A DNA stretch of 64,000 bases from Candidatus Harrisonbacteria bacterium (GTDB lineage Bacteria; Patescibacteriota; Minisyncoccia; UBA6257; 02-FULL-45-10c). The stretch is from contig JACPTS010000001.1 of the NCBI GenBank assembly GCA_016192685.1, positions 225,710 through 289,709 on the forward strand, in the 5' to 3' direction. The translations under genes and the position numbers were made by a program. The notes below the pieces were generated by a model. It ran no database searches. It saw nothing but the letters and a program-made list of their open reading frames with translations, and had not been told where the DNA came from. Below, in pieces: positions 9,206 to 55,328 of the stretch. Every line of letters begins with the position of its first letter. The first letter of the stretch is position 1.

Positions 9206-12200
9206 TTATATTTTCCTAACTCCTATCCAAATCGGCTGATTTTCTAATTTCGTACTTAATTCAACGTCAAATTTTGCCGATTTCTTAAAAACTAAATCGT
9301 TCGCGCCTACTTCTTTTTTAAGCTTACCGCTATTTCGTTCCCAAATTGCCGTTAATTCTTTTGGCGCCTCAACCATTAAAGCTATTTTATCTTTTGGCAC
9401 ATAATGCGCGTCATGCCGCAAACCCTGAACCATCCGCACTAATTCCCTAACTAGCCCCTCTTCTTTTAATTCCGGCGTTACGATGATATCCAAACCAACT
9501 TCACTCTCTAAATGCTGATTCCATTTCACTTCTTTAACATTAACCTCATCTTTTAAAATTTCCAGCAATTCCGCATCTCTTATATCCAACTTTTGACTTT
9601 TAACTTCTAAACTTTGAAGGGGTTGGCGGACTTTAATGCCTTTTTCCGCCCGCAGTGCCAGCGTCAGACTGGAAAGCCGCCGCACTTCTTCCATTTTTTC
9701 TAAAAGCGTATAGTCAATGGATTTTTTATCTGCTTCCGGCCAATCTTCTAAATGGACTGATTCTTTAGCTTTTAGCTTTGAGCTGTTAGCTTTTAGGGTT
9801 AGGGATTGATAAAGACTTTCGGCAAAAAATGGCGTAAATGGCGCAATCAATTTACTCAATTCCAAAAGACAGCGAAAAAGCGTGGCAGAAACAGACTGGA
9901 AATCTTTTTGGTCTGTTGGGCGCTGAAGCCGAGAGCGTGAACGCCGAATATACCAACGCGACAAATCATCCACGAAAACCTCCAGCGCCTTTCCCGAAGA
10001 GCCGACATCGTATTTTTCTAAATCATCGGTAGTCTTCTGAATAACTTGATTCAATCTTGCCAAAATCCACCCGTCTAAAATATTGTCTATTGTCTGTTGT
10101 CTGTCTGTTATCTGTTTGTCCCCGTATGTCTCAAAGAATACAAACGAATTATAAATAATCATAATAAATTTTCGGAGCGTTTTACCCAAATCCTGCTCAT
10201 CAAACTTTTTCGGTTCTGCCGGCGGATTAATCGTATAAAAATACCAACGCACCGCATCGACGCCATATTTATTCACCATATCCCAAGGACTAACTACATT
10301 GCCCTTAGACTTAGACATTTTTTGGCCGTTTTTATCAAGAACCAAACCAAGGGTAATGACATTTTTATACGGCGGCTCTTCAATTCCCAAAGCCGTAGCA
10401 ACGGCAAGAAGCGTATAGAACCATCCGCGAGTCTGGTCAATGCCCTCGCTAATATAATCTGCCGGAAAATCAATGCACTCCTGTAAAGTCTTTAGTCTTA
10501 AGTCATTAATCTTAAGTTTTTTAGCGCAGCTAAAAGGATAATGATCCTGCGCGAATGGCATTGCCCCGGAATCAAACCAGACATCCGCCACCTCTTTTAC
10601 CCTAACCATTTTCTTTCGGCACTTCGGACAGCGCAAATAAATATTATCCGCGTAAGGCCGATGCAAGTCCAATTCCGCGTTTCTATTATAAGGCCAATTA
10701 TGAAGTTCTACTTGCAAAACTTCGCCATTATTATGGATATAATCGGATTTCAAAATTTCTTCATTTGATAACCCAAGCATCGTCCCTTTAAGCATCCAAA
10801 GCGGTTCGCCGTGGCTAATTATCAAAATATTTTTATCGCTATATTTAGAATTAATATCCAAAACTGCTCCAAGCATCCTTTTTTTAACATCGTTTAAATT
10901 TTCTCCGCCAGGAGGCGTCTTGGTAAATTCTTCTAAGTGATTGTTAAAAAACTTTTTATGTTCTTCAATCAGTTGCCAATTAAAAATACCGCAATTAATT
11001 TCGGCTAAGCGCTTATCAATGATTATTTTTGCCTTGGTGACTTTGGCTACAATTTTAGCGGTTTCTCTGGTGCGAAAATAAGGGGAGGTAAAAATTAAAT
11101 CCAGTTTTTTTCCCTTAAGCAATTTTTTTAAATTTTTGGCGGCTTTTTGAATTTGCTCCTTCCCCTTCTTGGTAAGTTTAGAAATGTTTTTTCCTCTCTC
11201 CGGCCCAGCGGCAATTAAATTAGTTAAATTATGGTCTGATTCGCCATGCCGCAGCAGCCAAAAATTATTTTTAGAAAATCGCAATTTATCTAAATCTTCT
11301 AAGCCGCCGATTACCTCCCGATAATCGCATTTCTCGCATTCCCAAATCGGAAGCGGGGTGCCCCAATAACGATTGCGGGAAATCGCCCAGTCTTTAATTT
11401 CTCTAAGCCACTCGCCGAATCGTCCATCTTTGATATGCTCCGGAATCCAATTAATTTTTCGATTGCCCCTTAAAAGCTCGTCCCGCAGCTGACTCATCTC
11501 CACAAACCAAGAAAATTGGGATAAATATAAAAGCGGAGCATTGCAACGCCAGCAAAATGGATAGTCATGTTCAATAACCGCTCTTTTAAAGAGAATTTTT
11601 CTTTTATCCAAATCATTAATAATATCTTCATCAGCTTTTTTCACAAACTTCCCAGCTCCCGGCAGCCCCCTGGCGACGACGCCTTTCCCATCAATAGTAA
11701 TAGGAATCTGGCCTACTAACTCCTTTTGATACTTCTTAACTAAATTCATATCGTCTTCGCCAAAAGCCGGGGCGATATGGACGAGCCCAGTACCATCTTC
11801 AATAGAAACAAAATCCGCCGGATAAACCTGAAAAAATTTTTTATTTTTAAGCCATGGCCCCCCCACCTTGAACAACGGCTCGTATTTTAAGCCAACTAAT
11901 TTTTTTCCGGAAACTTTTTCTATCACTTCAACTTCTATCCCCGGTTCAACTGGGGGCGCATTATACGACCACAAAAATTCTTTACCAACTCTATACTTTG
12001 TATAAATAAGCTCTGGATTTACCGCCACTGCCACATTGGACGGGAGCGTCCAGGGCGTAGTAGTCCAAACAAGCAAAAATTCTTTTTGTTTGATACTTGA
12101 CACTTGACGCTTGATACGAAACTTAACATAAATCGATGGGTCCTTAACTTTCTGATACACGTCGGGCATACCCAACTCCGCATGGGAAAGCGGCGTCTGG

Positions 12201-18244: not shown

Positions 18245-20026
18245 TTATTTTAACATTTTAAGCATTTTTTCCAATGGCCAGGCATTGATAATATCTTTTT
18301 TTTCACCCCACCCTCGCCTCGCCTGCGCGATCCCATATTCCAGCCATTCAAAATGGGAAACAGAATGGGAATCAGAATTAATTGCCATTTTTACTCCTTG
18401 CTCCACGCATTTTCTGATATATTCATCTTTCAAATCAGCGCGGTCCGAAGCATTGATTTCTAAAATAGTGCCAGTTTTTTTAGCATGGCGGATTAATTCT
18501 TCCATATCAACATCATACGGCTGGCGTTTATTTAAAATCCGGCCAGTAGGATGAAAAATAATGTCTACATGCGGATTACTCATTGCCCGCTTAATCCTTT
18601 CTGTCTGTTCTTTTTTAGGTAAATTAAAAAGCGAATGCACTGAAGCCCCGACCACTTCGCACTTCGCCAAAATCTCATCCGGCAAATCCATTGAGCCGTC
18701 TTTTAAAATATCACATTCGGTGCCCCTTAAAACACGAAACTTAATACCCGAAACACGAAACTTTTTATTTACTTTATCAATTTCCAGCCACTGCTTTTGT
18801 ATCCGCTTTTCGTCCAAGCCATTAGTCATTGCCAAACGCTTGGTATGGTCAGTAATCGCAATATATTCTAAACCAGCGTCAAGCGCGGCTTCTGCCATTT
18901 CTTCTATAGAATTTGCGCCGTCGGTCCAATTCGTTTGAATCTGCAAATCGCCCTTTAAATCGCCGTAGCCAACTAAATTTGGAAGTTTTTCAACACGAGA
19001 AGCTTCAATTTCACCAGTCATTTCTCTCAACTCCGGTTCAATATAAGCTAATCCAAGCGCTTTATATAAATCTTCCTCGCTGCGACCGGCAATCTGCTTC
19101 TTGCCTTTAAATAATCCGTATTCACTAAGCTTATAACCTTTATCAATTGCCATGCGGCGCAATTCTACATTATGGTCTTTGGAGCCGGTAAAATAATTTA
19201 GCCCCGAGCCGTAAGATTCTTCCGGCAAAACCCGTAAATCCATATCTAAGCCGTTTTTCAATTTCACCGCTGATTTTGTCTCGCCATGCGCAAAAACCCT
19301 CGCCACTTCCGGCATAGACACAAAATAATCCATTATTTTACCCGCCGTAGCTTTACTTTGTCCGTCCGAAGCTTTACGCGAAGGAGGAGCGGAGGCGGGC
19401 AGGCTTTCATCAATGGTAATTAAAATATCCGCATCGCCGATAGTGTCTTTCCGCCGCCGCACCGAACCGGCAACGGCAATCTTTTTTACGCCGGGTAATT
19501 TTTTCAGGCGCGCTTCAATCTCCCGGATTTGCGGCATCACCAATCCTAAAACAAACCGGCCGCCCGATTTTCTTAAAAACTCCAAACTCTTTAAGATATT
19601 TTCTTCGCTTTTAACCCCAAATCCTTTCAAGTTGCGAATCCTTCCACTAGCCAAAGCTTTTTCCAAATCACGCAGTCCACGAATCCCTAATTTTGCATAA
19701 AGAGTTTTTAGAGTCTTTGGCCCCAATCCTTGAATTCCTTGAAAATCTTTAAGGCGGATCGGGATTTTTTTGCTAAGCTGTTCGTGAAATTTTACCTTTC
19801 CAGTTTTAATCGCCTCCTCAATTTTTTCCGCAATAGAAACCCCCACCCCGGGAATTTCTTCCAAAGCCTTCAGTCCTCCTTTTTTATAAATTTCTTTAAC
19901 CTCTTCATTTAAGTTAGCAACCACCTCGGCAACTTTTTCATAAGCCCGCGGCTTAAATGGCACGTCCTGCATTTCAAGATAAATGCCAATCTCGCCTAAA
20001 ATTTTAGCAATTTCCTGATTGGTCAT
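18245..20026 (-). CDS. polX: DNA polymerase/3'-5' exonuclease PolX (Pol beta-like plus PHP domain)
   Basis: 593 aa with an N-terminal HhH/Pol-beta-like region and a C-terminal PHP domain. It contains an in-frame acacgaaac-type tandem repeat. Confidence 0.8.
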   Translation of the reverse strand: MTNQEIAKILGEIGIYLEMQDVPFKPRAYEKVAEVVANLNEEVKEIYKKGGLKALEEIPGVGVSIAEKIEEAIKTGKVKFHEQLSKKIPIRLKDFQGIQGLGPKTLKTLYAKLGIRGLRDLEKALASGRIRNLKGFGVKSEENILKSLEFLRKSGGRFVLGLVMPQIREIEARLKKLPGVKKIAVAGSVRRRKDTIGDADILITIDESLPASAPPSRKASDGQSKATAGKIMDYFVSMPEVARVFAHGETKSAVKLKNGLDMDLRVLPEESYGSGLNYFTGSKDHNVELRRMAIDKGYKLSEYGLFKGKKQIAGRSEEDLYKALGLAYIEPELREMTGEIEASRVEKLPNLVGYGDLKGDLQIQTNWTDGANSIEEMAEAALDAGLEYIAITDHTKRLAMTNGLDEKRIQKQWLEIDKVNKKFRVSGIKFRVLRGTECDILKDGSMDLPDEILAKCEVVGASVHSLFNLPKKEQTERIKRAMSNPHVDIIFHPTGRILNKRQPYDVDMEELIRHAKKTGTILEINASDRADLKDEYIRKCVEQGVKMAINSDSHSVSHFEWLEYGIAQARRGWGEKKDIINAWPLEKMLKMLK

Positions 20027-25192: not shown

Positions 25193-25205
25193 AATGAAGC
25201 GATTA

Positions 25206-25323
25206 GCAGAAGACGAACTGGTTGTCTTCGTTCCAGACGTTGTCGGGGTTGCCGTAGTTGCTGTTCAGCCACCGTCCGTTGTCATCGTGCTTCACGTTGA
25301 ACAGCTTCAAGTTGCCGTCCGAA
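25206..25323 (-). repeat. DGR template repeat (TR)
   Basis: A 118-bp repeat homologous to 25613-25730. On the minus strand it is rich in AAC codons (..GGC AAC TTG AAG CTG TTC AAC GTG AAG ... AAC AGC AAC TAC GGC AAC CCC GAC AAC ...). All 17 differences from the VR are at TR adenines. Confidence 0.85.
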
Positions 25324-25545
25324 TCAGTAATGTATAGCACGCCTTCCATTCCACTGCTCCTTGAATGCTCTCGGAGCTGCATCTAATTCGGCATCTTATA
25401 TGCCCTAGCATACTATACCAAGTAGCTTCATTTTTTAGGAATTAAAATTTTTAATCCCGGAGTTCAACGGTCTAAAGCCGTAACCGTAGACGCATTATTT
25501 ACTATCCAAAATTATACTAACAATTAAAATCTGATTTGAAAATAG

Positions 25546-25581
25546 AAATGCCTCGCAAGAGCAAGCTCTTGCGAGGCATTT
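25546..25581. promoter_or_regulatory. perfect 16-bp stem / 4-nt loop hairpin about 30 nt 3' of the VR (candidate DGR target-recognition hairpin and/or target-gene terminator)
   Basis: aaatgcctcgcaagag-caag-ctcttgcgaggcattt. It lies 25 nt downstream of the target stop on the minus strand. Confidence 0.5.
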
Positions 25582-25606
25582 TTCCAGCGGTCCAGCAGAC
25601 CCGAAG

Positions 25607-26266
25607 CTACTTGCAGAAGACGAACCGGTAGACTCCGTCCCAGACGAAGTCGGGGTCGCCGTAGTAGCTGCTCAGCCACCGTCCGCTGACATCGTGCCCC
25701 ACGCTGAACAGCCTCAAGTAGCCGTCCGAAGCAGCGATTGGCTCCATCGCGACGACAAGCCATTCGCCGTAAGGCTGGTCCGAATACTGCAGACGAAGCT
25801 GAGGACCGACCTCTACCGGACACTTCTTCAGTCCGCGCTCTTCTGCGCGCTGGATGATCTCCTGAAAAGGAGCTTGATCCTTGCCAGTCAGCTCCTTGAC
25901 TGAGACCTTGACCAGTTCCACGGTTTCCTGGTTCGCCGCCGTAAAGGCTGACTTACCAAGAATGTCGTTCGCCCAGTCGCTAATCCTGTATCCGCCAACC
26001 TTGAGAGCATGGCGGAAGTCATCAGCGGTCTTGAGGTCGGTGCCGAGCTTGATGGTTTTCCAGGTTGGGAAGCCACATCTCTCAGCCCCTTTCTTTACGA
26101 AGGGATTGCGGTGCTCAATCAAGGCTTGGACGTGGCGCGAGTTCAATGCCCCACGCTTCATCTGTCCCCTGATTTCCTTCGTTTGCGCATCCAGCTTCTC
26201 ATACATCTCAAGGAGCTGGTCTGAGGTCGGCTTTTGATCCGAACCCACGACGATTTTTTTGGTCAT
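25607..26266 (-). CDS. DGR target protein (219 aa) with C-terminal VR-encoded ligand-binding (C-type-lectin-like) region; no N-terminal signal peptide evident
   Basis: The ORF ends exactly at the VR (..VFCK*). Its N-terminus, MTKKIVVGSDQKPTSDQLLEMYEK..., is hydrophilic. GC content is much higher than the window average. The other ORFs listed in this region are alternative frames of the same GC-rich DNA. Confidence 0.75.
   Translation of the reverse strand: MTKKIVVGSDQKPTSDQLLEMYEKLDAQTKEIRGQMKRGALNSRHVQALIEHRNPFVKKGAERCGFPTWKTIKLGTDLKTADDFRHALKVGGYRISDWANDILGKSAFTAANQETVELVKVSVKELTGKDQAPFQEIIQRAEERGLKKCPVEVGPQLRLQYSDQPYGEWLVVAMEPIAASDGYLRLFSVGHDVSGRWLSSYYGDPDFVWDGVYRFVFCK
25613..25730 (-). 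repeat. DGR variable repeat (VR) at the 3' end of the target gene
   Basis: It encodes ...SDGYLRLFSVGHDVSGRWLSSYYGDPDFVWDGVYRFVFCK*. It differs from the TR at 17 positions, for example AAC>TAC/AGC/GAC/TTC, AAG>AGG/GGG, GAA>GGA and CAG>CGG. Every difference is at a TR adenine and none at any other base. Confidence 0.85.
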
Positions 26267-40397: not shown

Positions 40398-40503
40398 GAT
40401 AATTTAATAATCGATAAGAACCAGAGCACATAAATGAATTTATGTGCTCGGCCGAGCATATAACTTGATTATATGCTCTGGTCCGGCCCGTATAAAAATA
40501 TAA

Positions 40504-41420: not shown

Positions 41421-42659
41421 TTATTGATTCCTAATTTCTCTTTGCGGAATCAAGTGCGGATCAGTCGGCAAAGTAAAATGAAAAGTTGAACCGCGGCCAA
41501 CTTCAGATTCCGCCCAAATCTGACCGCCGTGGCGGGTAATAATATTCTTTACAATATAAAGGCCGAGGCCGGAACCGATAGTTTCCTTCGTAAGGGCATT
41601 CTCCGCCCGGAAAAATTTAGTAAAAAGCTTATCCATTGATTCTTTCGGAATGCCCATTCCGGTATCAGAAATTTTTATCTCCGCGAAGGGCGCCTCCTCC
41701 CGGCGCGCAACGCTTACTGTCACTTGGCCGTTTGGCAGATTATATTTAATCGCGTTTTCCAAAAGATTAGAGACCGCCAAAGTTAATTTTTCCGTATCTA
41801 TTTCTACTTCTAAAGAAACCTCTTTGGGCGGCTCCATGTAAATTTTAATATTATACTCTTTTGCTACCGGAGAAGCTTGGTCTAAAATAGATTGTAAAAA
41901 GGCGACTAAATCCGCTTTCTGGAATTTATAGCCGAACATCCCTTCTTCAATTTTAGAAATATTCAGCAAATCTTCCACAATTTTCAATAAATTATTGGCC
42001 GCCGCCAATCCGGTTTCCGCCAATTCCTTTTGCGAATCGGTCAATTTCTCATTTTTCAGGGATTGGTAGGCCCAGGTTACGGCAGAAAGCGGCGTTCGCA
42101 GCTGATGGGCGGCCACGGTAATAAAATCATTTTTAGATTTTAAAAGCTCTGTTTCCCGCGTTTGGTCGTGGATAATCTTTAAAAATCCGGCCACTTCCCC
42201 TTTTTCATTTTTTATCCGGTCAGTAATCACCCGAAGTTCCAGCGGCGGCTCGGAAAAAGAAATATCCACTATTTGCGGATAAAGCCCTTCCGGAGATTGC
42301 CTGATAACCAAAGGCGCGAGAGATTGAAAAATAACTTTTGCCAGCACTCCCAGTTTTTGGTCACGGGCATCTTCCGGAACCATTTTTTTATTCAAAAGTT
42401 CCTCTTTACGGAGGTTAAAAATTGTTTCGGCGGCCGGACTAAACATTGCTATCCTAAAATCCTGGTCATAAATAATAATACCGTCATTCATGCTGGCAAT
42501 AATATTATCTATGCGCAATTTTTCTAACCGCAATCCGGCAACTTCCCTGTTTTTCTCGTTCAATTTCAAAAAAAGAGCCGCGATTACCGCTCCAGAAATC
42601 AATAAAATTAAAATTAATAAAATTGAAAGCATATAAAAAATTAATCCAGCTCTCCCCAA
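41421..42659 (-). CDS. sensor histidine kinase (TM, PAS-like, HisKA, HATPase_c); no adjacent response regulator
   Basis: H-box AAHQLRTPLSAV and G-box GSGLGLYIVKNII. Confidence 0.75.
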   Translation of the reverse strand: MGRAGLIFYMLSILLILILLISGAVIAALFLKLNEKNREVAGLRLEKLRIDNIIASMNDGIIIYDQDFRIAMFSPAAETIFNLRKEELLNKKMVPEDARDQKLGVLAKVIFQSLAPLVIRQSPEGLYPQIVDISFSEPPLELRVITDRIKNEKGEVAGFLKIIHDQTRETELLKSKNDFITVAAHQLRTPLSAVTWAYQSLKNEKLTDSQKELAETGLAAANNLLKIVEDLLNISKIEEGMFGYKFQKADLVAFLQSILDQASPVAKEYNIKIYMEPPKEVSLEVEIDTEKLTLAVSNLLENAIKYNLPNGQVTVSVARREEAPFAEIKISDTGMGIPKESMDKLFTKFFRAENALTKETIGSGLGLYIVKNIITRHGGQIWAESEVGRGSTFHFTLPTDPHLIPQREIRNQ

Positions 42660-44116
42660 TTTTTGCCGATTTTAGCTGTCACCTTAATCGGCACTTCCAG
42701 CTCATAAGCGCTTTCCATAATTTTCCGAATCAACGCCATTGCCTCTTTTATTATATTCTCCTTAATTTCAAACAACAATTCATCGTGGATTGTCAGGAGC
42801 ATCCGAACTTGGTTGCCATACCATCCTTTTTTCTCCAATTCTGGTTTTAATTTCACCATGGCAATTTTGATGATATCCGCGGCGAGGCCCTGCACCGGCA
42901 TATTAATCGCCGCCCGCTCAGCTTCAGCCGCTTCGCTTCTAAACATAGAAGCGGCTTGAAGCAGCCACCGGCGGCGGCCATTTAAATTCATCACATAACC
43001 AAAAGTCCGAGTTTGCGCCTTTACTTCTTCCTGCCACTCTTTAATTTTTTTAAAATCGCTGAAATATTCATCAATAAATTTTCGGGCTTCAACCGCGCTT
43101 AAGCCGCTTGTCTTAGCAAAAGCAAATGCACCCATTCCATAAACCACCCCGAAATTCAAAGTTTTTGCCAATCGCCGCATTTCCGGCGTAACTTTTTCCA
43201 AAGACACATTAAAAACATTCGCCGCCGTTAATTTATGAATATCCAAATCATTATTAAACGCTTCCATCATTTTTGGATCGCCGGAAAGGGAAGCCAGTAC
43301 CCGCAGTTCAATCTGCGAATAATCAAAGGCCGCCAGCATAAATCCTTTTTCTACAATGAAAGCACGGCGAACTTTTCTACCCCAAGCACCCTCAATGGGA
43401 ATATTTTGAAGATTCGGATTTTGCGAGCTTAAGCGGCCGGTGGAAGTGCCGGTTTGTATATAGGTAGTATGCACCCGCCCATCTTTCCCAACTAATTCCT
43501 GAAGCGGCCGGACATAAGTAGATTGAAGCTTAAAAAGTTCCCGGTATTCTAAAAGGTGTTTTACGATTGGGTGGCGATTTTTTATTAAAGATAAAGTTTG
43601 TTCGTTGGTGGAAATTTGACCGGTCTTGGTTTTCTTAACGCCGGCAATGTCAATTTTTAATTTCTTAAAAAGAATTTCTCCGAGTTGTTTCGGCGAATTA
43701 ATGTTAAAAGTCCCGCCGGCTTCTTTATAAATTGCTTTTACCAATTTTTTTATTTCGCCGTCTAATTCTTTATCTAATCTCTTTAAATAAGCCGAATCTA
43801 TTTTAATGCCGGCGTCCTCCATCTCCGCAAGCGCTGAAACTAATGGCATCTCCACATCATAAAAAAGTTTTTCCAGTTTATATTCTTTTAATTTCTTAAC
43901 GGCATAATTGTATAACTCTCCTTTTAAGTCTTGTCTCGAGCTCGCCGCTGGGTCTTTATGCAAAAATTTCTTACTCAAATTTTCCAAGCTATAATCTCCT
44001 TCGTCCGGATTCAAAAGCCAATAAGCGATTCCTAAATCAAAATATTCCGCCGGCGGCTTTTTGCCGATGCGCTTAAATTCCTTTATTTTTTCCTTAATAT
44101 TAAAATCGGTTAGCAT
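42641..44116 (-). CDS. polA: DNA polymerase I, polymerase domain only (split PolA)
   Basis: Pol I family motifs are present: RRLAKTLNFGVVYGMGAFAFA (motif B) and HDELLFE (motif C). 491 aa, with no 5'-3' exonuclease domain. Confidence 0.85.
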   Translation of the reverse strand: MLTDFNIKEKIKEFKRIGKKPPAEYFDLGIAYWLLNPDEGDYSLENLSKKFLHKDPAASSRQDLKGELYNYAVKKLKEYKLEKLFYDVEMPLVSALAEMEDAGIKIDSAYLKRLDKELDGEIKKLVKAIYKEAGGTFNINSPKQLGEILFKKLKIDIAGVKKTKTGQISTNEQTLSLIKNRHPIVKHLLEYRELFKLQSTYVRPLQELVGKDGRVHTTYIQTGTSTGRLSSQNPNLQNIPIEGAWGRKVRRAFIVEKGFMLAAFDYSQIELRVLASLSGDPKMMEAFNNDLDIHKLTAANVFNVSLEKVTPEMRRLAKTLNFGVVYGMGAFAFAKTSGLSAVEARKFIDEYFSDFKKIKEWQEEVKAQTRTFGYVMNLNGRRRWLLQAASMFRSEAAEAERAAINMPVQGLAADIIKIAMVKLKPELEKKGWYGNQVRMLLTIHDELLFEIKENIIKEAMALIRKIMESAYELEVPIKVTAKIGKNWGELD

Positions 44117-44135
44117 ATTTTTATATAATTTTTTA

Positions 44136-44175
44136 TTTATCCAGTTATCAAGCTCGAGCTTGATAACTGGATAAA
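44136..44175. repeat. 40-bp perfect palindrome, copy 1 (tttatccagttatcaagctcgagcttgataactggataaa)
   Basis: It lies 20 bp upstream of the polA(pol) start on the minus strand. Confidence 0.9.
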
Positions 44176-44222
44176 CTTATTTTCTGTTCCTGCCAAACTT
44201 AAATCAATAATTACACTAATAA

Positions 44223-44789
44223 CTATATCTTAAAATAATGTTTAAACTTCTCTTCGCCTTCAAAATTGCTAATATTGAAAATAAGCACATATTTTCTAAT
44301 TTCAAATACTGAACAAATAAAATCCAGTTCTTTTTCACACTCATATGGCGTTAAAAATACACTTTCCTGAATTGGGTAAAAGTTAAGTTGATTTAATTTT
44401 TGTCGCAATGCCTCTCTAGCTTTCTTTTTGGCATTAGGAATATCAAATATTACCATTCTCCACTTTTTATCCCATTTCCTTTTGGTATCAAGCTTAAGAT
44501 TATCAAGATTATATTTTAACTCTATCGTTTTTCCGGCCCTTGTTAAAACAATTTTAATATCTCCATTAGCTAATTCTTGATAATTAATCAGGTTTCTTGC
44601 TTGAAGATTTTTTAAGTCACGCAAAAATTTTTCTCTTTCAAATCGCTTTTTTCTAAAATAAATTCTAACTAAATCGCGGACGAGCTGCGCTCCGCTTGCC
44701 GGAGCAATGCTGGAAAGAACAATAAATCCACCGGCAAGAAAAGCGTATTTCAAAATTTGATAAGGCTTAGAATCCTTCCGCAGGCGCAT
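44223..44789 (-). CDS. wHTH-like N-terminal domain plus Cas2-like C-terminal domain protein (PaaX-like regulator candidate); no CRISPR array or cas1 nearby
   Basis: The C-terminus RMVIFDIPNAKKKAREALRQKLNQLNFYPIQESVFLTPYECEKELDFICSVFEIRKYVLIF matches the Cas2 core pattern (vvYDI...kR..k..k.L..yG.rvQ.SVF.c.l). 188 aa. The gene is bracketed by palindrome copies 1 and 2. Confidence 0.4.
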   Translation of the reverse strand: MRLRKDSKPYQILKYAFLAGGFIVLSSIAPASGAQLVRDLVRIYFRKKRFEREKFLRDLKNLQARNLINYQELANGDIKIVLTRAGKTIELKYNLDNLKLDTKRKWDKKWRMVIFDIPNAKKKAREALRQKLNQLNFYPIQESVFLTPYECEKELDFICSVFEIRKYVLIFNISNFEGEEKFKHYFKI

Positions 44790-44820
44790 AAATAAAATTT
44801 AGCCTAACATTATCCTATCC

Positions 44821-44866
44821 AGTTATCAAGCTCGAGCTTGATAACTGGATAGGATATAAAACTCTT
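44821..44866. repeat. 46-bp perfect palindrome, copy 2 (same 36-bp core, extended arms)
   Basis: tatcctatccagttatcaagctcgagcttgataactggataggata. It lies 32 bp upstream of the 188-aa gene start and about 55 bp upstream of the divergent M23 peptidase gene. Confidence 0.9.
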
Positions 44867-44921
44867 GTAAAAAAGTTTTCTTTGAAGTATAATTTCAATA
44901 GAAAAAATTGAGAATAAACAA

Positions 44922-45650
44922 ATGAAAACCACTTCCAATCTTCTAGATTTACTATTCCAAAATCGTTCCCGATTTCGCGACGTGATTCCAAAATCATTAT
45001 TCAAAAAACCGCACCGAGAAGTTAATTTGCCCGAAGAAGTTTTAAAGTTTTTTAAGCGGCATTCAAGACTAAAAATTTCACCCAAAGAAATCACTAATCC
45101 GGATAAATGCGCGCAATTAGTTAAGCAAATCCATAAAGAGCTTGGGCTAGTTTGGAGCTGTGGCGGCTGGCTGGAAAATCGGGAAAAACTGCTCGCCGAA
45201 ACTTATCTTAAAGAAACTAAATCCTGGATTCATCTGGGTATTGATATTAATGTTCCGGTTGGCACGCCAGTTTTAGCGACAGCAAATGGCGTTGTTCATC
45301 TGGTTGATTCAGATTTTCCGGAAAAAGGCGGCTGGGGGAATTTTGTAATTATTGAACATCAAATTGCCGAGGTTAAATTTTACAGCATCTACGGACACTT
45401 AGCCTCTACTGCTTTAGTTAATGAAGATAAAACAGTCCTGGCTGGCGAAGCAGTTGGCAAAGTCGGCACCACCAAAGAAAACGGATTTTGGTTCCCACAT
45501 ACTCATTTCCAACTTATTTCCGAAACAGAAATGAGACGACAAGAAAAACCTTTTACTTTAGACGGCTATGGCTCGCCAAAAAATTTGGATTATTTACGAG
45601 AAAATTATCCAAATCCTTTGACAGTCTTACCAATGGGAAACAAAGATTAA
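44922..45650 (+). CDS. M23 family metallopeptidase
   Basis: HLGIDINVPVGTPVLATANGVV ... GHL ... HTHFQL (HxxxD / HxH motifs). Confidence 0.75.
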   Translation: MKTTSNLLDLLFQNRSRFRDVIPKSLFKKPHREVNLPEEVLKFFKRHSRLKISPKEITNPDKCAQLVKQIHKELGLVWSCGGWLENREKLLAETYLKETKSWIHLGIDINVPVGTPVLATANGVVHLVDSDFPEKGGWGNFVIIEHQIAEVKFYSIYGHLASTALVNEDKTVLAGEAVGKVGTTKENGFWFPHTHFQLISETEMRRQEKPFTLDGYGSPKNLDYLRENYPNPLTVLPMGNKD

Positions 45651-45672
45651 GCGGCCTAAAAAGGCCGCTTTT
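45649..45672. terminator. bidirectional terminator hairpin (aagcggcc-taaaaa-ggccgctt)
   Basis: An 8-bp stem between the convergent M23 peptidase and 2H phosphoesterase genes. Confidence 0.6.
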
Positions 45673-45691
45673 ATAATCCTAATTTAAATAA

Positions 45692-46249
45692 TTACTTATA
45701 CGATTTTAGTAAAATTCTTTCTTTAGAGCTTAATCTTAATTGAATTTTATCTAAATTAATAAAAATAGATTTATCTTTTTTAAATTTTTGAATGGTTTTA
45801 ATAATTAAGTTTATAAATTTTCTTGATTTAAGAAATCCAATAGTAATGTGAAAATTCATTACCTCTTTTGGATCAGAAATTGTTGGGATAATTTTTGAAA
45901 TTTCTTTCATAATAATTTTATAAAATCTGGCTAACCTCTTCGTATTTAATACCTTAATGTAAACAATTGGTGGAGCCTCGGAATCGTATTTATTAACCTT
46001 AAACATTAAAACATTACCGATCAATATTTTAATCGGGAAAAACTGGTCCGCATTTAAAACAACCACTTTTTTAATTAAGTTCAGTATTTGTTTGCTTGGT
46101 TTAGAATTGCTCAAATATGCAACACTAATATGTAGACGTCTTTTCTCTACAAAATTACAAAAGGGTGATAATTCTTTTTTATATTTAGCATATCTTTTAA
46201 CAATGCTTTGGTAAGAATCTACCGGAATGCGTATCGTAACAATAGACAT
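45692..46249 (-). CDS. 2H phosphoesterase superfamily protein (LigT / 2'-5' RNA ligase-like)
   Basis: Two H-x-[ST]-x motifs (HISVAY and HITIGF) at the appropriate spacing. The gene is very AT-rich. 185 aa. Confidence 0.5.
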   Translation of the reverse strand: MSIVTIRIPVDSYQSIVKRYAKYKKELSPFCNFVEKRRLHISVAYLSNSKPSKQILNLIKKVVVLNADQFFPIKILIGNVLMFKVNKYDSEAPPIVYIKVLNTKRLARFYKIIMKEISKIIPTISDPKEVMNFHITIGFLKSRKFINLIIKTIQKFKKDKSIFINLDKIQLRLSSKERILLKSYK

Positions 46250-46260
46250 AATAAAACAAT

Positions 46261-47115
46261 TTATAATCTCTCAACCAAACTTTTAAAACCTAAGCCGTCA
46301 AAATATTTTTTGAGTTCTTCTTTGTCTAGCGTCTCTTGTTTTAAGTCGACCAATGTCAATTCTAATGACACATCACGTTTTATCATTGCCAATTTTTTAG
46401 AAAGAAAAGCGGATTCCCGTCCGGATTCCAATTTTTTCCGCAGAACTTCTTTTGGGATTAATCCGACCTCTTCATAAATTTTCTCAACACTTCCATATTC
46501 TTTAATTAAATCCGTAGCGCCTTTCGGGCCGATGCCGGTCACGCCCGGGATATTATCCGATGCGTCGCCTACCAATGCCTTATAATCCACCAACTGCTCC
46601 GGCGAAAAACCATATTGCTGTAAAAATAATGCCTTATCATAAGTGATTGTTTTGCTGACGCCGGTTTTTAAAAGTTCCACAAAAACTTTATCATCAACTA
46701 ATTGAAGATTATCTTTATCGCCGGAAAAGATTACCACTTTTACATCCGGCTCATTTTTGAATTTTTCGGCCAAAGTTCCAACAATGTCGTCTGCTTCAAA
46801 ACCGGCTTTTTCCACTACTTTAATCCCGAATTTTTGAAATGTTTCATGCGCTTCATGGAGCTGGGAAATCAATTCATTGGCAGTCGGCGGACGATGCGCT
46901 TTATATTCTTTAAACATTTCATCCCGAAAAGTCGGCTCTGGCCGGTCAAAAGCCGCTGCCACATAATCCGGCTGATGCTCCCGCAAAATTTTTAAAAGAA
47001 TACTAGAAAGCCCGTACACCGCGTTAATCGGCTCGCCTTTTGGAGTAGTCAACGGCGGAAGCGCGTGAAACGAACGGTGAATCAAAGAATTGGCGTCAAT
47101 TAAAAGTAGTTTCAT
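46261..47115 (-). CDS. 5'-3' exonuclease (FEN-like, stand-alone PolA N-terminal domain homolog)
   Basis: LLLIDANSLIHRSFHA..., FEADDIVGTLA and SGDKDNLQLV motifs. Confidence 0.85.
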   Translation of the reverse strand: MKLLLIDANSLIHRSFHALPPLTTPKGEPINAVYGLSSILLKILREHQPDYVAAAFDRPEPTFRDEMFKEYKAHRPPTANELISQLHEAHETFQKFGIKVVEKAGFEADDIVGTLAEKFKNEPDVKVVIFSGDKDNLQLVDDKVFVELLKTGVSKTITYDKALFLQQYGFSPEQLVDYKALVGDASDNIPGVTGIGPKGATDLIKEYGSVEKIYEEVGLIPKEVLRKKLESGRESAFLSKKLAMIKRDVSLELTLVDLKQETLDKEELKKYFDGLGFKSLVERL

Positions 47116-47118
47116 GTT

Positions 47119-47592
47119 TCAAGTTTTATGTTTTACTCTAATTATACGCTCTTTTTCATTTTTCCCATGCTCAAAATTTATCCAAATGGTGTTTTTTGGT
47201 AAAAGTTTTTTAATTCTTTCAGGCCATTCAATTAAAACTATTGCGTGCGGGTCTTGAAGAGTTTTTTTAAAACCTAAATCCAAAAGTTCTTTTGGTTTAT
47301 GAATCCTATATAAGTCTAAATGGTAGGCGTGGTGGTAATGGGGGCGATTTTTTTTAAGGGGAGTAGAAATTTCATATTTCCGGATAATTAAAAAAGTGGG
47401 GCTGGTAACGCGATGCTTTACCTCAAGCGCTTTCATAAATCCTTGGACAAAAGTGGTTTTGCCGGCGCCAAGATCACCATGTAACGCAATTATTGTAGCC
47501 CTTCGACTTTGCTCAGGGCGGCGCGCCTTTAATATTTTATTTACTAGGCGCGCCGCGAATTTTTGGGTTTGGGTTTTGGACTTACTAAGCAT
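47119..47592 (-). CDS. tsaE: tRNA threonylcarbamoyladenosine biosynthesis protein TsaE
   Basis: P-loop LHGDLGAGKTTFVQG. 157 aa. Confidence 0.8.
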   Translation of the reverse strand: MLSKSKTQTQKFAARLVNKILKARRPEQSRRATIIALHGDLGAGKTTFVQGFMKALEVKHRVTSPTFLIIRKYEISTPLKKNRPHYHHAYHLDLYRIHKPKELLDLGFKKTLQDPHAIVLIEWPERIKKLLPKNTIWINFEHGKNEKERIIRVKHKT

Positions 47593-47599
47593 AAAGGTG

Positions 47600-47641
47600 G
47601 TTTATCCAGTTATCAAGCTCGAGCTTGATAACTGGATAAAC
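47600..47641. repeat. 42-bp perfect palindrome, copy 3
   Basis: gtttatccagttatcaagctcgagcttgataactggataaac. It lies 8 bp upstream of the tsaE start codon. Confidence 0.9.
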
Positions 47642-47759
47642 TAAAATAATTTTATCTCTAGTTTTTTCTCCAGCTGCAAAATAATATACAAACCGAGCGC
47701 GGCTAAAATCACCGATACAAAAAAATCGGTAATAAGAAAATTATAAAAATCGGAACCCA

Positions 47760-48083
47760 TTAATATCTTAAATTGGCCAATTCTTCCAGTTGATCCAAAA
47801 ATTTATTAAGTTGGTCTTTTAATTGACCGTCGGGGTAACGGAGAGGCGGCCTAATCAGTTTTGGCTGTTTTTCGGGGCGACTATTCTGATAACCGGAATA
47901 AACTGAATAAATTTGCGCCGATAAATTATTGGCGCGCGCGGAAAACGCGGCAATTTGCGGCCCATGGTCAGAAATAAAAACTATCCCGACCAGAAACAGG
48001 CTGGCGGCCATGCTCAAAAATACTAAACCATTGGCGAATAATTCATGGAGGCCGTCAAATTTTAAATGGCTAATTTTTTTCAT
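47760..48083 (-). CDS. hypothetical small membrane protein (107 aa)
   Basis: One central TM helix. It abuts ruvB. Confidence 0.3.
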   Translation of the reverse strand: MKKISHLKFDGLHELFANGLVFLSMAASLFLVGIVFISDHGPQIAAFSARANNLSAQIYSVYSGYQNSRPEKQPKLIRPPLRYPDGQLKDQLNKFLDQLEELANLRY

Positions 48084-55281: not shown

Positions 55282-55287
55282 ATTAAT

Positions 55288-55328
55288 GAAAACTCCACGG
55301 ACTTAAATCCGTGGAGTTTTCATTTTAT
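55288..55328 (+). terminator. rho-independent terminator (aaaactccacgga-cttaaa-tccgtggagtttt)
   Basis: A 13-bp stem with a T-run. Confidence 0.7.

Follow-up and report, generated by a model that had tools for sequence, protein, structure and literature searches.

We examined a stretch of 64,000 nucleotides (the window) from the 608-kb contig of a Candidatus Harrisonbacteria metagenome-assembled genome (MAG), a member of the Patescibacteria (the candidate phyla radiation, CPR). Along its minus strand lie ruvB, an open reading frame (ORF) of 107 amino acids (aa), an ORF of 39 aa, a palindrome (copy 3), tsaE, a 5'-3' exonuclease gene, a LigT-like gene, an M23 peptidase gene on the plus strand, a second palindrome (copy 2), a gene for a 188-aa protein related to the repressor PaaX, a third palindrome (copy 1) and the polymerase-domain gene of DNA polymerase I (polA-pol), in this order (Table 1). 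The palindrome is, on comparative grounds, very probably a cis-element of the 188-aa protein. The proteins concerned are best described as a family of truncated PaaX-like probable repressors, consisting of a winged helix and a Cas2-like domain and bracketed by long, perfect palindromes specific to each lineage, that recurs across many ultra-small Patescibacteria.

Three copies of a palindrome around a PaaX-like gene

An inverted-repeat finder detected all three copies as perfect palindromes with zero loop, and a 36-bp core, TATCCAGTTATCAAGCTCGAGCTTGATAACTGGATA, is common to them. Outside this core the extensions are unlike between copies (TT/AA, TATCC/GGATA, GTT/AAC), yet still palindromic. 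The 30-bp core CCAGTTATCAAGCTCGAGCTTGATAACTGG was found exactly three times in the window, at 44141, 44819 and 47606, with no further copy there at up to three mismatches; 100 shuffles gave no match, so that none is expected by chance. These searches bore out the initial annotation, which had described three perfect palindromes of 40-46 bp with a shared core, each just upstream of a minus-strand gene start and one on either side of the winged-helix gene. Its coordinates for copy 2 (44821-44866) were 10 bp too high, and the gaps it gave to polA-pol, the 188-aa gene and tsaE (20, 32 and 8 nt) are replaced by those in Table 1.

A search of the window for 17-mer half-sites with up to three mismatches recovered only the six arms and one chance-level match within the tmRNA gene. 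Each arm resembles two 8-bp direct repeats, TATCCAGT and TATCAAGC, as read from the sequence. All three copies lie within 3.5 kb of the PaaX-like gene, the count in this genome covering 64 kb of the 608-kb contig. Copy 3 occupies the whole gap between the stop codon of the 39-aa ORF and the start of tsaE. Two ORFs ending in ...VIKLELDNWI(G/N), at 44810-45094 (minus strand) and 47396-47644 (plus strand), run through the repeat and are antisense to the M23 and tsaE regions; they are therefore most likely spurious, as had been proposed initially.

Table 1. Features at and around the palindromes, in window coordinates. The two candidate promoters were read from the sequence.
Feature	Position	Strand	Description
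Palindrome copy 1	44136..44175		40 bp, perfect, 20-nt arms; 47 nt past the PaaX-like stop codon, 19 nt upstream of the polA-pol start (44116)
Palindrome copy 2	44811..44856		46 bp, perfect, zero loop, 23-nt arms; between divergent genes, 21 nt ahead of the PaaX-like start (44789)
Palindrome copy 3	47600..47641		42 bp, perfect, 21-nt arms; 7 nt upstream of the tsaE start (47592)
188-aa PaaX-like gene	44223..44789	-	PF20803, AlphaFold/Foldseek; identical to HYY86_01415 on the 608-kb contig of the Candidatus Harrisonbacteria MAG
Candidate weak promoter of the PaaX-like gene	44801..44829	-	-35 TTGATA in the arm (44829-44824), 17-nt spacer, -10 TAGGCT (44806-44801)
Candidate promoter of polA-pol	44122..44151	-	-35 TTGATA in the arm (44151-44146), 18-nt spacer, -10 TATATA (44127-44122)
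DNA polymerase I polymerase-domain gene (polA-pol)	42641..44116	-	491 aa; PF00476, E 4e-144; directly downstream of copy 1
M23 peptidase gene	44922..45650	+	Divergent from the PaaX-like gene
LigT-like 2H phosphoesterase gene	45692-46249	-	In the tightly spaced group 45692..47592
5'-3' exonuclease gene	46261-47115	-	In the same tightly spaced group
tsaE	47119-47592	-	In the same tightly spaced group, which lies downstream of copy 3
Hydrophobic 39-aa ORF	47641..47760	-	Start overlaps the stop of the 107-aa ORF (TAATG); stop codon overlaps the first base of copy 3

Concerning the 188-aa protein, Pfam identified PaaX_M (PF20803), the central Cas2-like domain of PaaX, with an E-value of 1.7e-21 and 76.6 bits against a cutoff of 24. 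Neither PaaX_N nor PaaX_C was matched in the protein, which stops 8 residues past the Cas2-like domain, and TIGR02277, the model for full-length PaaX, scored 21.4 bits against a cutoff of 264.55, with residues 103-172 only. As for models of Cas2 itself, PF09827 scored 25.0 bits (cutoff 23.8) across 38 residues and TIGR01573 22.6 bits (cutoff 24.5), and PADLOC returned weak Cas2 matches only. An AlphaFold model based on an alignment of 40 sequences (mean pLDDT 71, above 85 for residues 110-188) displayed a winged helix, with a helix at residues 52-64 and a beta wing, followed by a ferredoxin-like domain. When this model was compared with known structures by Foldseek, E. coli PaaX (8a39) ranked first, followed by about 30 Cas2 structures, many with a probability of about 1.0. 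D116, Q141 and S143 are invariant and match the Asp of beta1 ('FDI') and the QxSVF motif of Cas2. Residues 12-34 of the protein (gene at 44223-44789) form a conserved hydrophobic segment, ILKYAFLAGGFIVLSSIAPASGA, between basic stretches, with a pLDDT below 50; this segment may be the first helices of the winged helix or a membrane anchor.

At a threshold of E<=1e-30 the family comprises 622 clusters or representatives (50% identity), and at E<=1e-10 there are 2,829; nearly all have a length of 180-195 aa. Among the matches seen it is confined to Patescibacteria, with several paralogues per genome; in the window there is no PaaX-like paralogue besides the 188-aa protein. Public records often label the family proteins Cas2. 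No cas gene recurred as a neighbour among 82 loci, and no neighbourhood is conserved family-wide: 622 neighbouring ORFs fell into 393 clusters, and contexts were specific to ortholog groups only.

Palindromes at homologous genes in other Patescibacteria

Homologous loci were collected by a profile-guided scan of GTDB genomes, which gave at least 590 loci, 80 of which were fetched, and by a metagenome scan with the pattern GTTATCAAGC-N4-GCTTGATAAC, whose centre is degenerate and which gave nine loci. Six of these nine are unrelated palindromes in other organisms, without a PaaX-like gene. In locus L009, a palindrome with one central mismatch to that of the window, TTATCCAGTTATCAAGCTGGAGCTTGATAACTGGATAA, is located between ruvA and the gene of a homologue of the 188-aa protein, and in L001 and L006, CCTCAGTTATCAAGCCTAGGCTTGATAACTGAGG is located upstream of another such homologue. 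The same palindrome was found upstream of homologues with identities of 54-76%, and the comparison with relatives that had been suggested initially thus found the core in related genomes. In the closest relatives (L090-L096, 71-76% identity), the outer arms TTTATCCARTTA are present on both sides of the gene, with TGCA, CTAG or GATC at the centre, and the neighbours are those of the window, M23 divergent upstream and polA downstream (order kept at 71-73% identity). The order PaaX-like gene, palindrome, polA was seen in L096 and L093, and the divergent M23 neighbour in the P0004 lineage.

All 25 of the 25 closest GTDB loci (L010-L034) carry a locus-specific palindrome or half-site on each flank of the gene. 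The upstream dyad is positioned roughly 20-95 bp before the start codon and the downstream palindrome begins at most about 150 bp past the stop codon; the two sites are near-identical within a locus and differ between lineages. Palindrome and protein were thus linked whichever of the two served as the starting point of a search. Among 106 long palindromes in 1.12 Mb, 47 fall in the 5% of sequence that adjoins the gene (p=2e-32). When palindromy was disregarded and the same oligomer of at least 14 nt was sought in both 200-bp flanks, it was present for 39 of 77 family genes and for 8 of 407 control genes from the same loci (p=4e-28). Within 1.27 Mb, no 30-bp core occurred outside its own locus and orthologous ones, and paralogues in one genome, which are about 52-54% identical, each have a different palindrome. 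Relatives contain 0-2 extra copies per 20-kb locus, about one extra per 50 kb, always near the gene. By inspection of distances, copy-to-copy spacing gave no pattern of helical phasing. In L012 (Jorgensenbacteria), the downstream site is tandemly duplicated with an 80-bp period (10605-10704), and a perfect palindrome 3.5 kb away, past the transketolase genes (L012:6410-6453), has the same outer arms (TGTCACGT) and a different inner sequence.

The arms are conserved over distances at which synonymous positions are not. The proteins of the window and of L009 are 58% identical and their third codon positions 37% (saturated), whereas the palindrome differs at one central base. Similarly, L020 and L023 encode proteins that are 54% identical and share an identical 30-bp core and 34-bp palindrome (ACCAAG...CTTGGT). 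Within the lineage of the window (71-76% identity), changes in the arms are limited to 1-2 positions, and the central 4 bp is variable (TCGA, TGCA, CTAG, GATC). Purifying selection therefore acts on the whole arms, with drift in the central 4 bp. A frame common to the sites of 29 lineages could be recognized, consisting of C3 (27/29), G4 (25/29), T10 (21/29), A1 (20/29) and A9 (19/29), together with C13, C15 and T18, with variable positions in between. Between lineages, similarity of the sites correlated with protein similarity and, after partialling, followed the N-terminal, winged-helix half (partial r 0.33, permutation p<0.0005) more closely than the Cas2-like half (0.17, p=0.035).

Differences between copies within loci comprised 36 compensated double, 6 uncompensated double and 87 single changes, the last mostly from decayed copies. 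In L090 and L091, which encode an identical protein, the downstream copy differs at two arm positions, each altered on both arms; contigs P0041 and P0039 provided no strain-level variation beyond this pair. Hairpin-templated (quasi-palindrome) template switching, a mutational mechanism from the E. coli literature, corrects the arms of palindromes. Such template switching on a long palindrome is the simplest explanation for the perfect symmetry of the sites and for the symmetry of the differences between copies; it would account for the arm-symmetric variants and the palindromic extensions as a mutational mechanism and not a function. Since template switching yields symmetric variants without selection, symmetry is weak evidence for a function as a hairpin. 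Decayed copies (L011:10591-10634, L015:9920-9963, L020:4388-4431, L021:9927-9970, L024:889-932, L025:4025-4068) are hybrids that keep one arm intact or nearly so; in every case, and in different genomes, it is the left arm, in gene orientation, that has drifted towards a similar A-rich ...AATAAAAAGCCA.

In terms of promoters, a -10-like hexamer (at least 5 of 6 positions of TATAAT) began at a distance of 12-32 bp from the dyad of the upstream copy, towards the gene, in 16 of 30 loci, five of them with a perfect hexamer, as against 7/30, 5/27 and 6/27 (21%) at the other three sides (p=0.002). With this placement of the -10 hexamer on the gene side, the palindrome therefore covers the -35 element and the spacer, the classical place of a repressor. 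In the window, the candidate promoters of the PaaX-like gene and of polA-pol both have their -35 hexamer within an arm, and an M23 promoter (TTGTAA-17-TATAAT, 44865-44893), found by a consensus scan, begins 8 bp beyond copy 2. The ATG of polA-pol is only 5 nt beyond its candidate -10 hexamer, which suggests a leaderless or near-leaderless mRNA.

Predicted role of the sites and alternative explanations

In E. coli and Pseudomonas, PaaX is the repressor of the phenylacetate (paa) genes and responds to phenylacetyl-CoA as inducer. No paa genes were found among the neighbours in the window, which are polA, M23, tsaE, the 5'-3' exonuclease gene and ruvB, or among those of the 82 loci. The E. coli protein consists of an N-terminal winged helix and a dimerisation motif, and represses its own Px promoter (PMC9493321). 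Its operator, TGATTC-N27-GAATCA, spans 39 bp with the hexamers 14-19 bp from the centre (PMC9493321). The family described here resembles PaaX in the order of domains, an N-terminal winged helix and then a Cas2-like central domain, and in a long inverted-repeat site (36-39 bp) whose recognition bases are distant from its centre. Counted from the dyad, bases 19-14 are TTATCC in the window and bases 17-14 are ATTC in L010 and L013, in the same register as the PaaX half-site; sites across the family span 36-54 bp. The family differs from PaaX in length (188 aa here versus about 310 aa), lacking the ligand-binding domain PaaX_C and a match to PaaX_N, in having a full perfect palindrome instead of two hexamers and a free spacer, in the two copies that bracket the regulator gene, and in forming a family of multiple paralogues.

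We infer binding, stoichiometry, the sign of regulation and the role of the downstream copy from these observations as follows. By analogy with PaaX and Cas2, the protein would dimerise or form a higher oligomer via its Cas2-like domain, and each arm of the 36-bp site, roughly 17 bp long, would be contacted and read by the winged-helix domains. In a PaaX-like geometry, a Cas2-like dimer would lie along the middle of the site with the winged helices at its ends. At copy 2 the bound protein would cover the -35 element and spacer of its own promoter and abut the divergent M23 promoter, resulting in self-repression. At copy 1 it would occupy the candidate promoter of the polymerase-domain gene, and at copy 3 it would block, as a roadblock, transcription into tsaE and the 5'-3' exonuclease and LigT-like genes. 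In the window, DNA polymerase I (Pol I) is split into an exonuclease gene and a polymerase-domain gene about 2.1 kb apart, with the LigT-like, M23 and PaaX-like genes in the approximately 2.1 kb between them, and a palindrome copy precedes each half, copy 1 that of polA-pol and copy 3 the tsaE-exonuclease group. One small repressor may thus control both itself and the two halves of a split DNA polymerase I. For the copy downstream of the gene, we favour either a loop formed with the upstream site or a roadblock that would stop antisense read-through. In phage lambda, cI lies between the OL and OR operator sets, an arrangement that allows looping and tight autoregulation. The likeness is that of a repressor gene between its own, here predicted, operators; the fold is unrelated, and a single long palindrome on each side, at a spacing of about 0.65-0.8 kb, takes the place of three short operators. 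Transcriptional (auto)repression with a small local regulon is, judging from these sequence features, the likely function. The initial annotation had proposed operators of the adjacent winged-helix/Cas2-like protein with autoregulation, and this proposal gained support from the lineage-specific bracketing palindromes, their presence at diverged relatives, the promoter position and the structural match to PaaX.

Several observations weigh against operator function. Relatives with strongly different palindromes have an almost unchanged presumed recognition helix, RFEREKFLRDLKNLQ. The correlations between site similarity and protein similarity are confounded by shared ancestry. The arms are conserved throughout, and 36 bp is more than one winged-helix dimer should read; conservation of the inner arms is not covered by a PaaX-like geometry, for which a dimer of dimers is possible. 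In the window, the -10 hexamer of the PaaX-like gene itself (TAGGCT) is weak, and the consensus promoter scan did not list this candidate promoter. Copy 3 ends so close to the tsaE ATG that there is no space for a downstream promoter, and action there would therefore be as a roadblock or at the RNA level. The initial annotation had asked whether copies always stand upstream of genes. This does not hold in the relatives: at least 10 loci (L015, L016, L018-L022, L024, L027, L030) have convergent genes on the two sides of the downstream copy, which is therefore not a promoter operator there.

We also considered that palindrome, gene and palindrome together constitute a selfish or excisable cassette, in which the Cas2-like domain would be a nuclease acting on extruded hairpins or cruciforms, comparable to RAYT/REP, the ends of IS200/IS605 or hairpin-telomere resolution. 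Near-identical perfect palindromes do bracket the gene family-wide, the invariant D116, Q141 and S143 fit the Cas2 motifs, differences between copies and strains are symmetric in both arms even where the protein is identical, and the G+C content of the PaaX-like gene is low. Solo copies are found within a few kb of the gene; they would be scars or dispersed copies, copy 3 among them. Contigs often break inside the palindromes, as seen in short public contigs that start or end there (L093:1, L095:791, L096:1, L117:1304). Furthermore, two independent MEGAHIT assemblies from different samples (L114 and L115, 1745 bp each) are dumbbell contigs containing the same self-reverse-complementary circle of 1604 nt plus an overlap of 141 nt. 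This circle corresponds to an 802-bp segment that runs from dyad to dyad and has the PaaX-like gene inside it (cf. L109:856-1680), plus the reverse complement of that segment, and is either a fold-back assembly artefact at both palindromes or a hairpin-ended excised cassette. Fold-back contigs at perfect palindromes are a plausible artefact of de Bruijn graphs, which counts against a cassette, and three other short contigs of the family were ordinary, with no dumbbell. In addition, positions are stable across genera (next to a transketolase/rpe/rpiB cluster in five genomes, and between M23 and polA in the lineage of the window), multiple identical cassettes were not found, the paralogues having only about 50% identity and palindromes of their own, and the few extra copies always lie near the gene. 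Phage, plasmid and IMG/VR collections contained no relatives of the family or copies of the palindrome, and no transposase or recombinase was consistently adjacent across family loci. We thus regard an excisable cassette as unlikely, and the view of solo palindromes as its remains as equally so. It seems very unlikely that the Cas2-like domain cuts or resolves extruded palindromes and that the 0.65-0.8-kb cassette exists as hairpin-ended (dumbbell) or otherwise excised DNA. If true, this would represent a new mobile or recombining element based on the Cas2 fold in Patescibacteria, and Cas2-like proteins that bind repeats might then be linked in evolution to the palindromic repeats of CRISPR.

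The palindromes might instead act as RNA hairpins that stabilise or terminate transcripts at the 3' end, undergo RNase III-type processing or block translation just before start codons. The stems predicted for them have 18-21 pairs (-17.7 to -21.8 kcal/mol for DNA, z about -12), the downstream copies of relatives often lie between convergent genes, and copy 3 is inside an apparent operon immediately before an ATG. Copies 1 and 3 were flagged as terminator-like, on the plus strand only; on the minus (gene) strand the stems are followed by A-rich sequence, and no T-run follows the stem in the gene direction either in the window or after the downstream copies of relatives. An intrinsic terminator is not supported on these grounds. 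The upstream copy, lying over or upstream of the -10 hexamer in many relatives, would not be transcribed whole. In imperfect copies, G:U-compatible mismatches are not enriched on the sense strand (16 sense, 21 antisense), the central 4 bp, which would be the loop, is nearly always self-complementary, and dyad positions 1, 3 and 4 are conserved family-wide although a hairpin does not need them. Rfam gave no family match in the palindrome region, and for L009 sub-threshold miRNA matches only, which were treated as noise. A role as RNA hairpins is accordingly improbable, and there is little to recommend its corollary, that the likeness among copies results from copying and not from recognition by a protein.

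A generic repeat resembling REP or MITE elements, or a feature of chance or assembly unlinked to the neighbouring protein, is extremely unlikely. Identical copies within 3.5 kb could be recent duplications, and perfect palindromes do disturb assemblies. On the other hand, no copy is expected by chance, the arrangement recurs with different sequences in dozens of genomes that were assembled independently, the arms have been kept even where divergence is saturating, and no direct repeats or target-site duplications flank the copies in the window. An exact search for the 22-bp core in 185,579 GTDB species genomes gave no match. Instead of hundreds of scattered copies, there are three in 64 kb, all at most 3.5 kb from the gene. 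Like RAYT/REP systems, the family has a lineage-stable single-copy gene flanked by hairpin-capable repeats, with solo copies as well; it differs in that the protein is not an HUH/Y1 transposase, in the number of repeats (three in 64 kb versus hundreds), in the perfect zero-loop sites of 36-54 bp versus imperfect REPs of 20-40 nt, and in the overlap of the upstream copy with the promoter. Membership in REP/RAYT or MITE is not supported in view of the copy number, the winged-helix and Cas2-like partner and the lack of flanking direct repeats, and low copy number, stable synteny and the absence of relatives in the phage, plasmid and viral collections speak against the REP- or MITE-like alternative in the initial annotation. 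The protein shares with Cas2 and VapD-type nucleases the ferredoxin-like fold of its C-terminal domain, the 'FDI' Asp of beta1 and 'QxSVF'. Here a winged helix is joined to this domain, the score with TIGR01573 is under the cutoff, and the neighbours are housekeeping genes; with neither a CRISPR-like direct repeat array nor cas1 in the window, a CRISPR adaptation module is not supported.

Neighbouring features and significance

In a Wolfebacteria locus (L030), the exonuclease and polymerase genes of Pol I are adjacent (18344-19246 and 19430 onward). The LigT-like 2H phosphoesterase, of the 2'-5' RNA ligase superfamily, also recurs beside or near PaaX-like genes at loci that are otherwise unrelated (L021, -630..-76 from the gene start; L119:272-832; L040; L042; L075); this recurrence could be a functional link or simply one ortholog group. 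G+C in the PaaX-like and LigT-like genes of the window (44200-44800 and 45600-46200) is 0.25-0.34 versus a window average of 0.41. Elsewhere in the window, at 55285-55324, a different 40-bp near-perfect zero-loop palindrome, AATGAAAACTCCACGGACTT/AAATCCGTGGAGTTTTCATT, separates an acidic ORF of 50 aa from the start of a PBP1A-like gene. At 40420-40482, the stop codon of an fpg-like gene is directly followed by nested or adjacent hairpins (ACCAGAGCACATAA...TTATATGCTCTGGT around two shorter stems); they had no Rfam match at the gathering threshold and may be a terminator or a small structured RNA. A direct repeat of 132 nt, 84% identical, was found at 25196-25734, where ORF 25203-25382 repeats, in truncated form, the 3' end of a 219-aa gene (25607-26266), with a hairpin of 19-bp stem (25544-25583) between the two.

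The literature searched contained no report linking PaaX with Patescibacteria or with 'Cas2-like', and the arrangement of this protein and its flanking palindromes in Patescibacteria is apparently undescribed. Neither 'Cas2' nor 'PaaX' is an apt name for these proteins in public records, and their palindromes appear to break or fold back metagenome assemblies. The Patescibacteria, for which a regulator family is predicted here, are a poorly understood group whose genomes are tiny, in which few regulators can be recognised and for which genetics hardly exists. With an unusually long predicted operator readable on either side of each paralogue's gene, pairs of protein and site would become available, allowing local regulons to be predicted in uncultured organisms, and the family may represent a natural set of potentially orthogonal repressor/operator pairs. 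In the genome studied here, the sites suggest co-regulation of the two separately encoded halves of DNA polymerase I.

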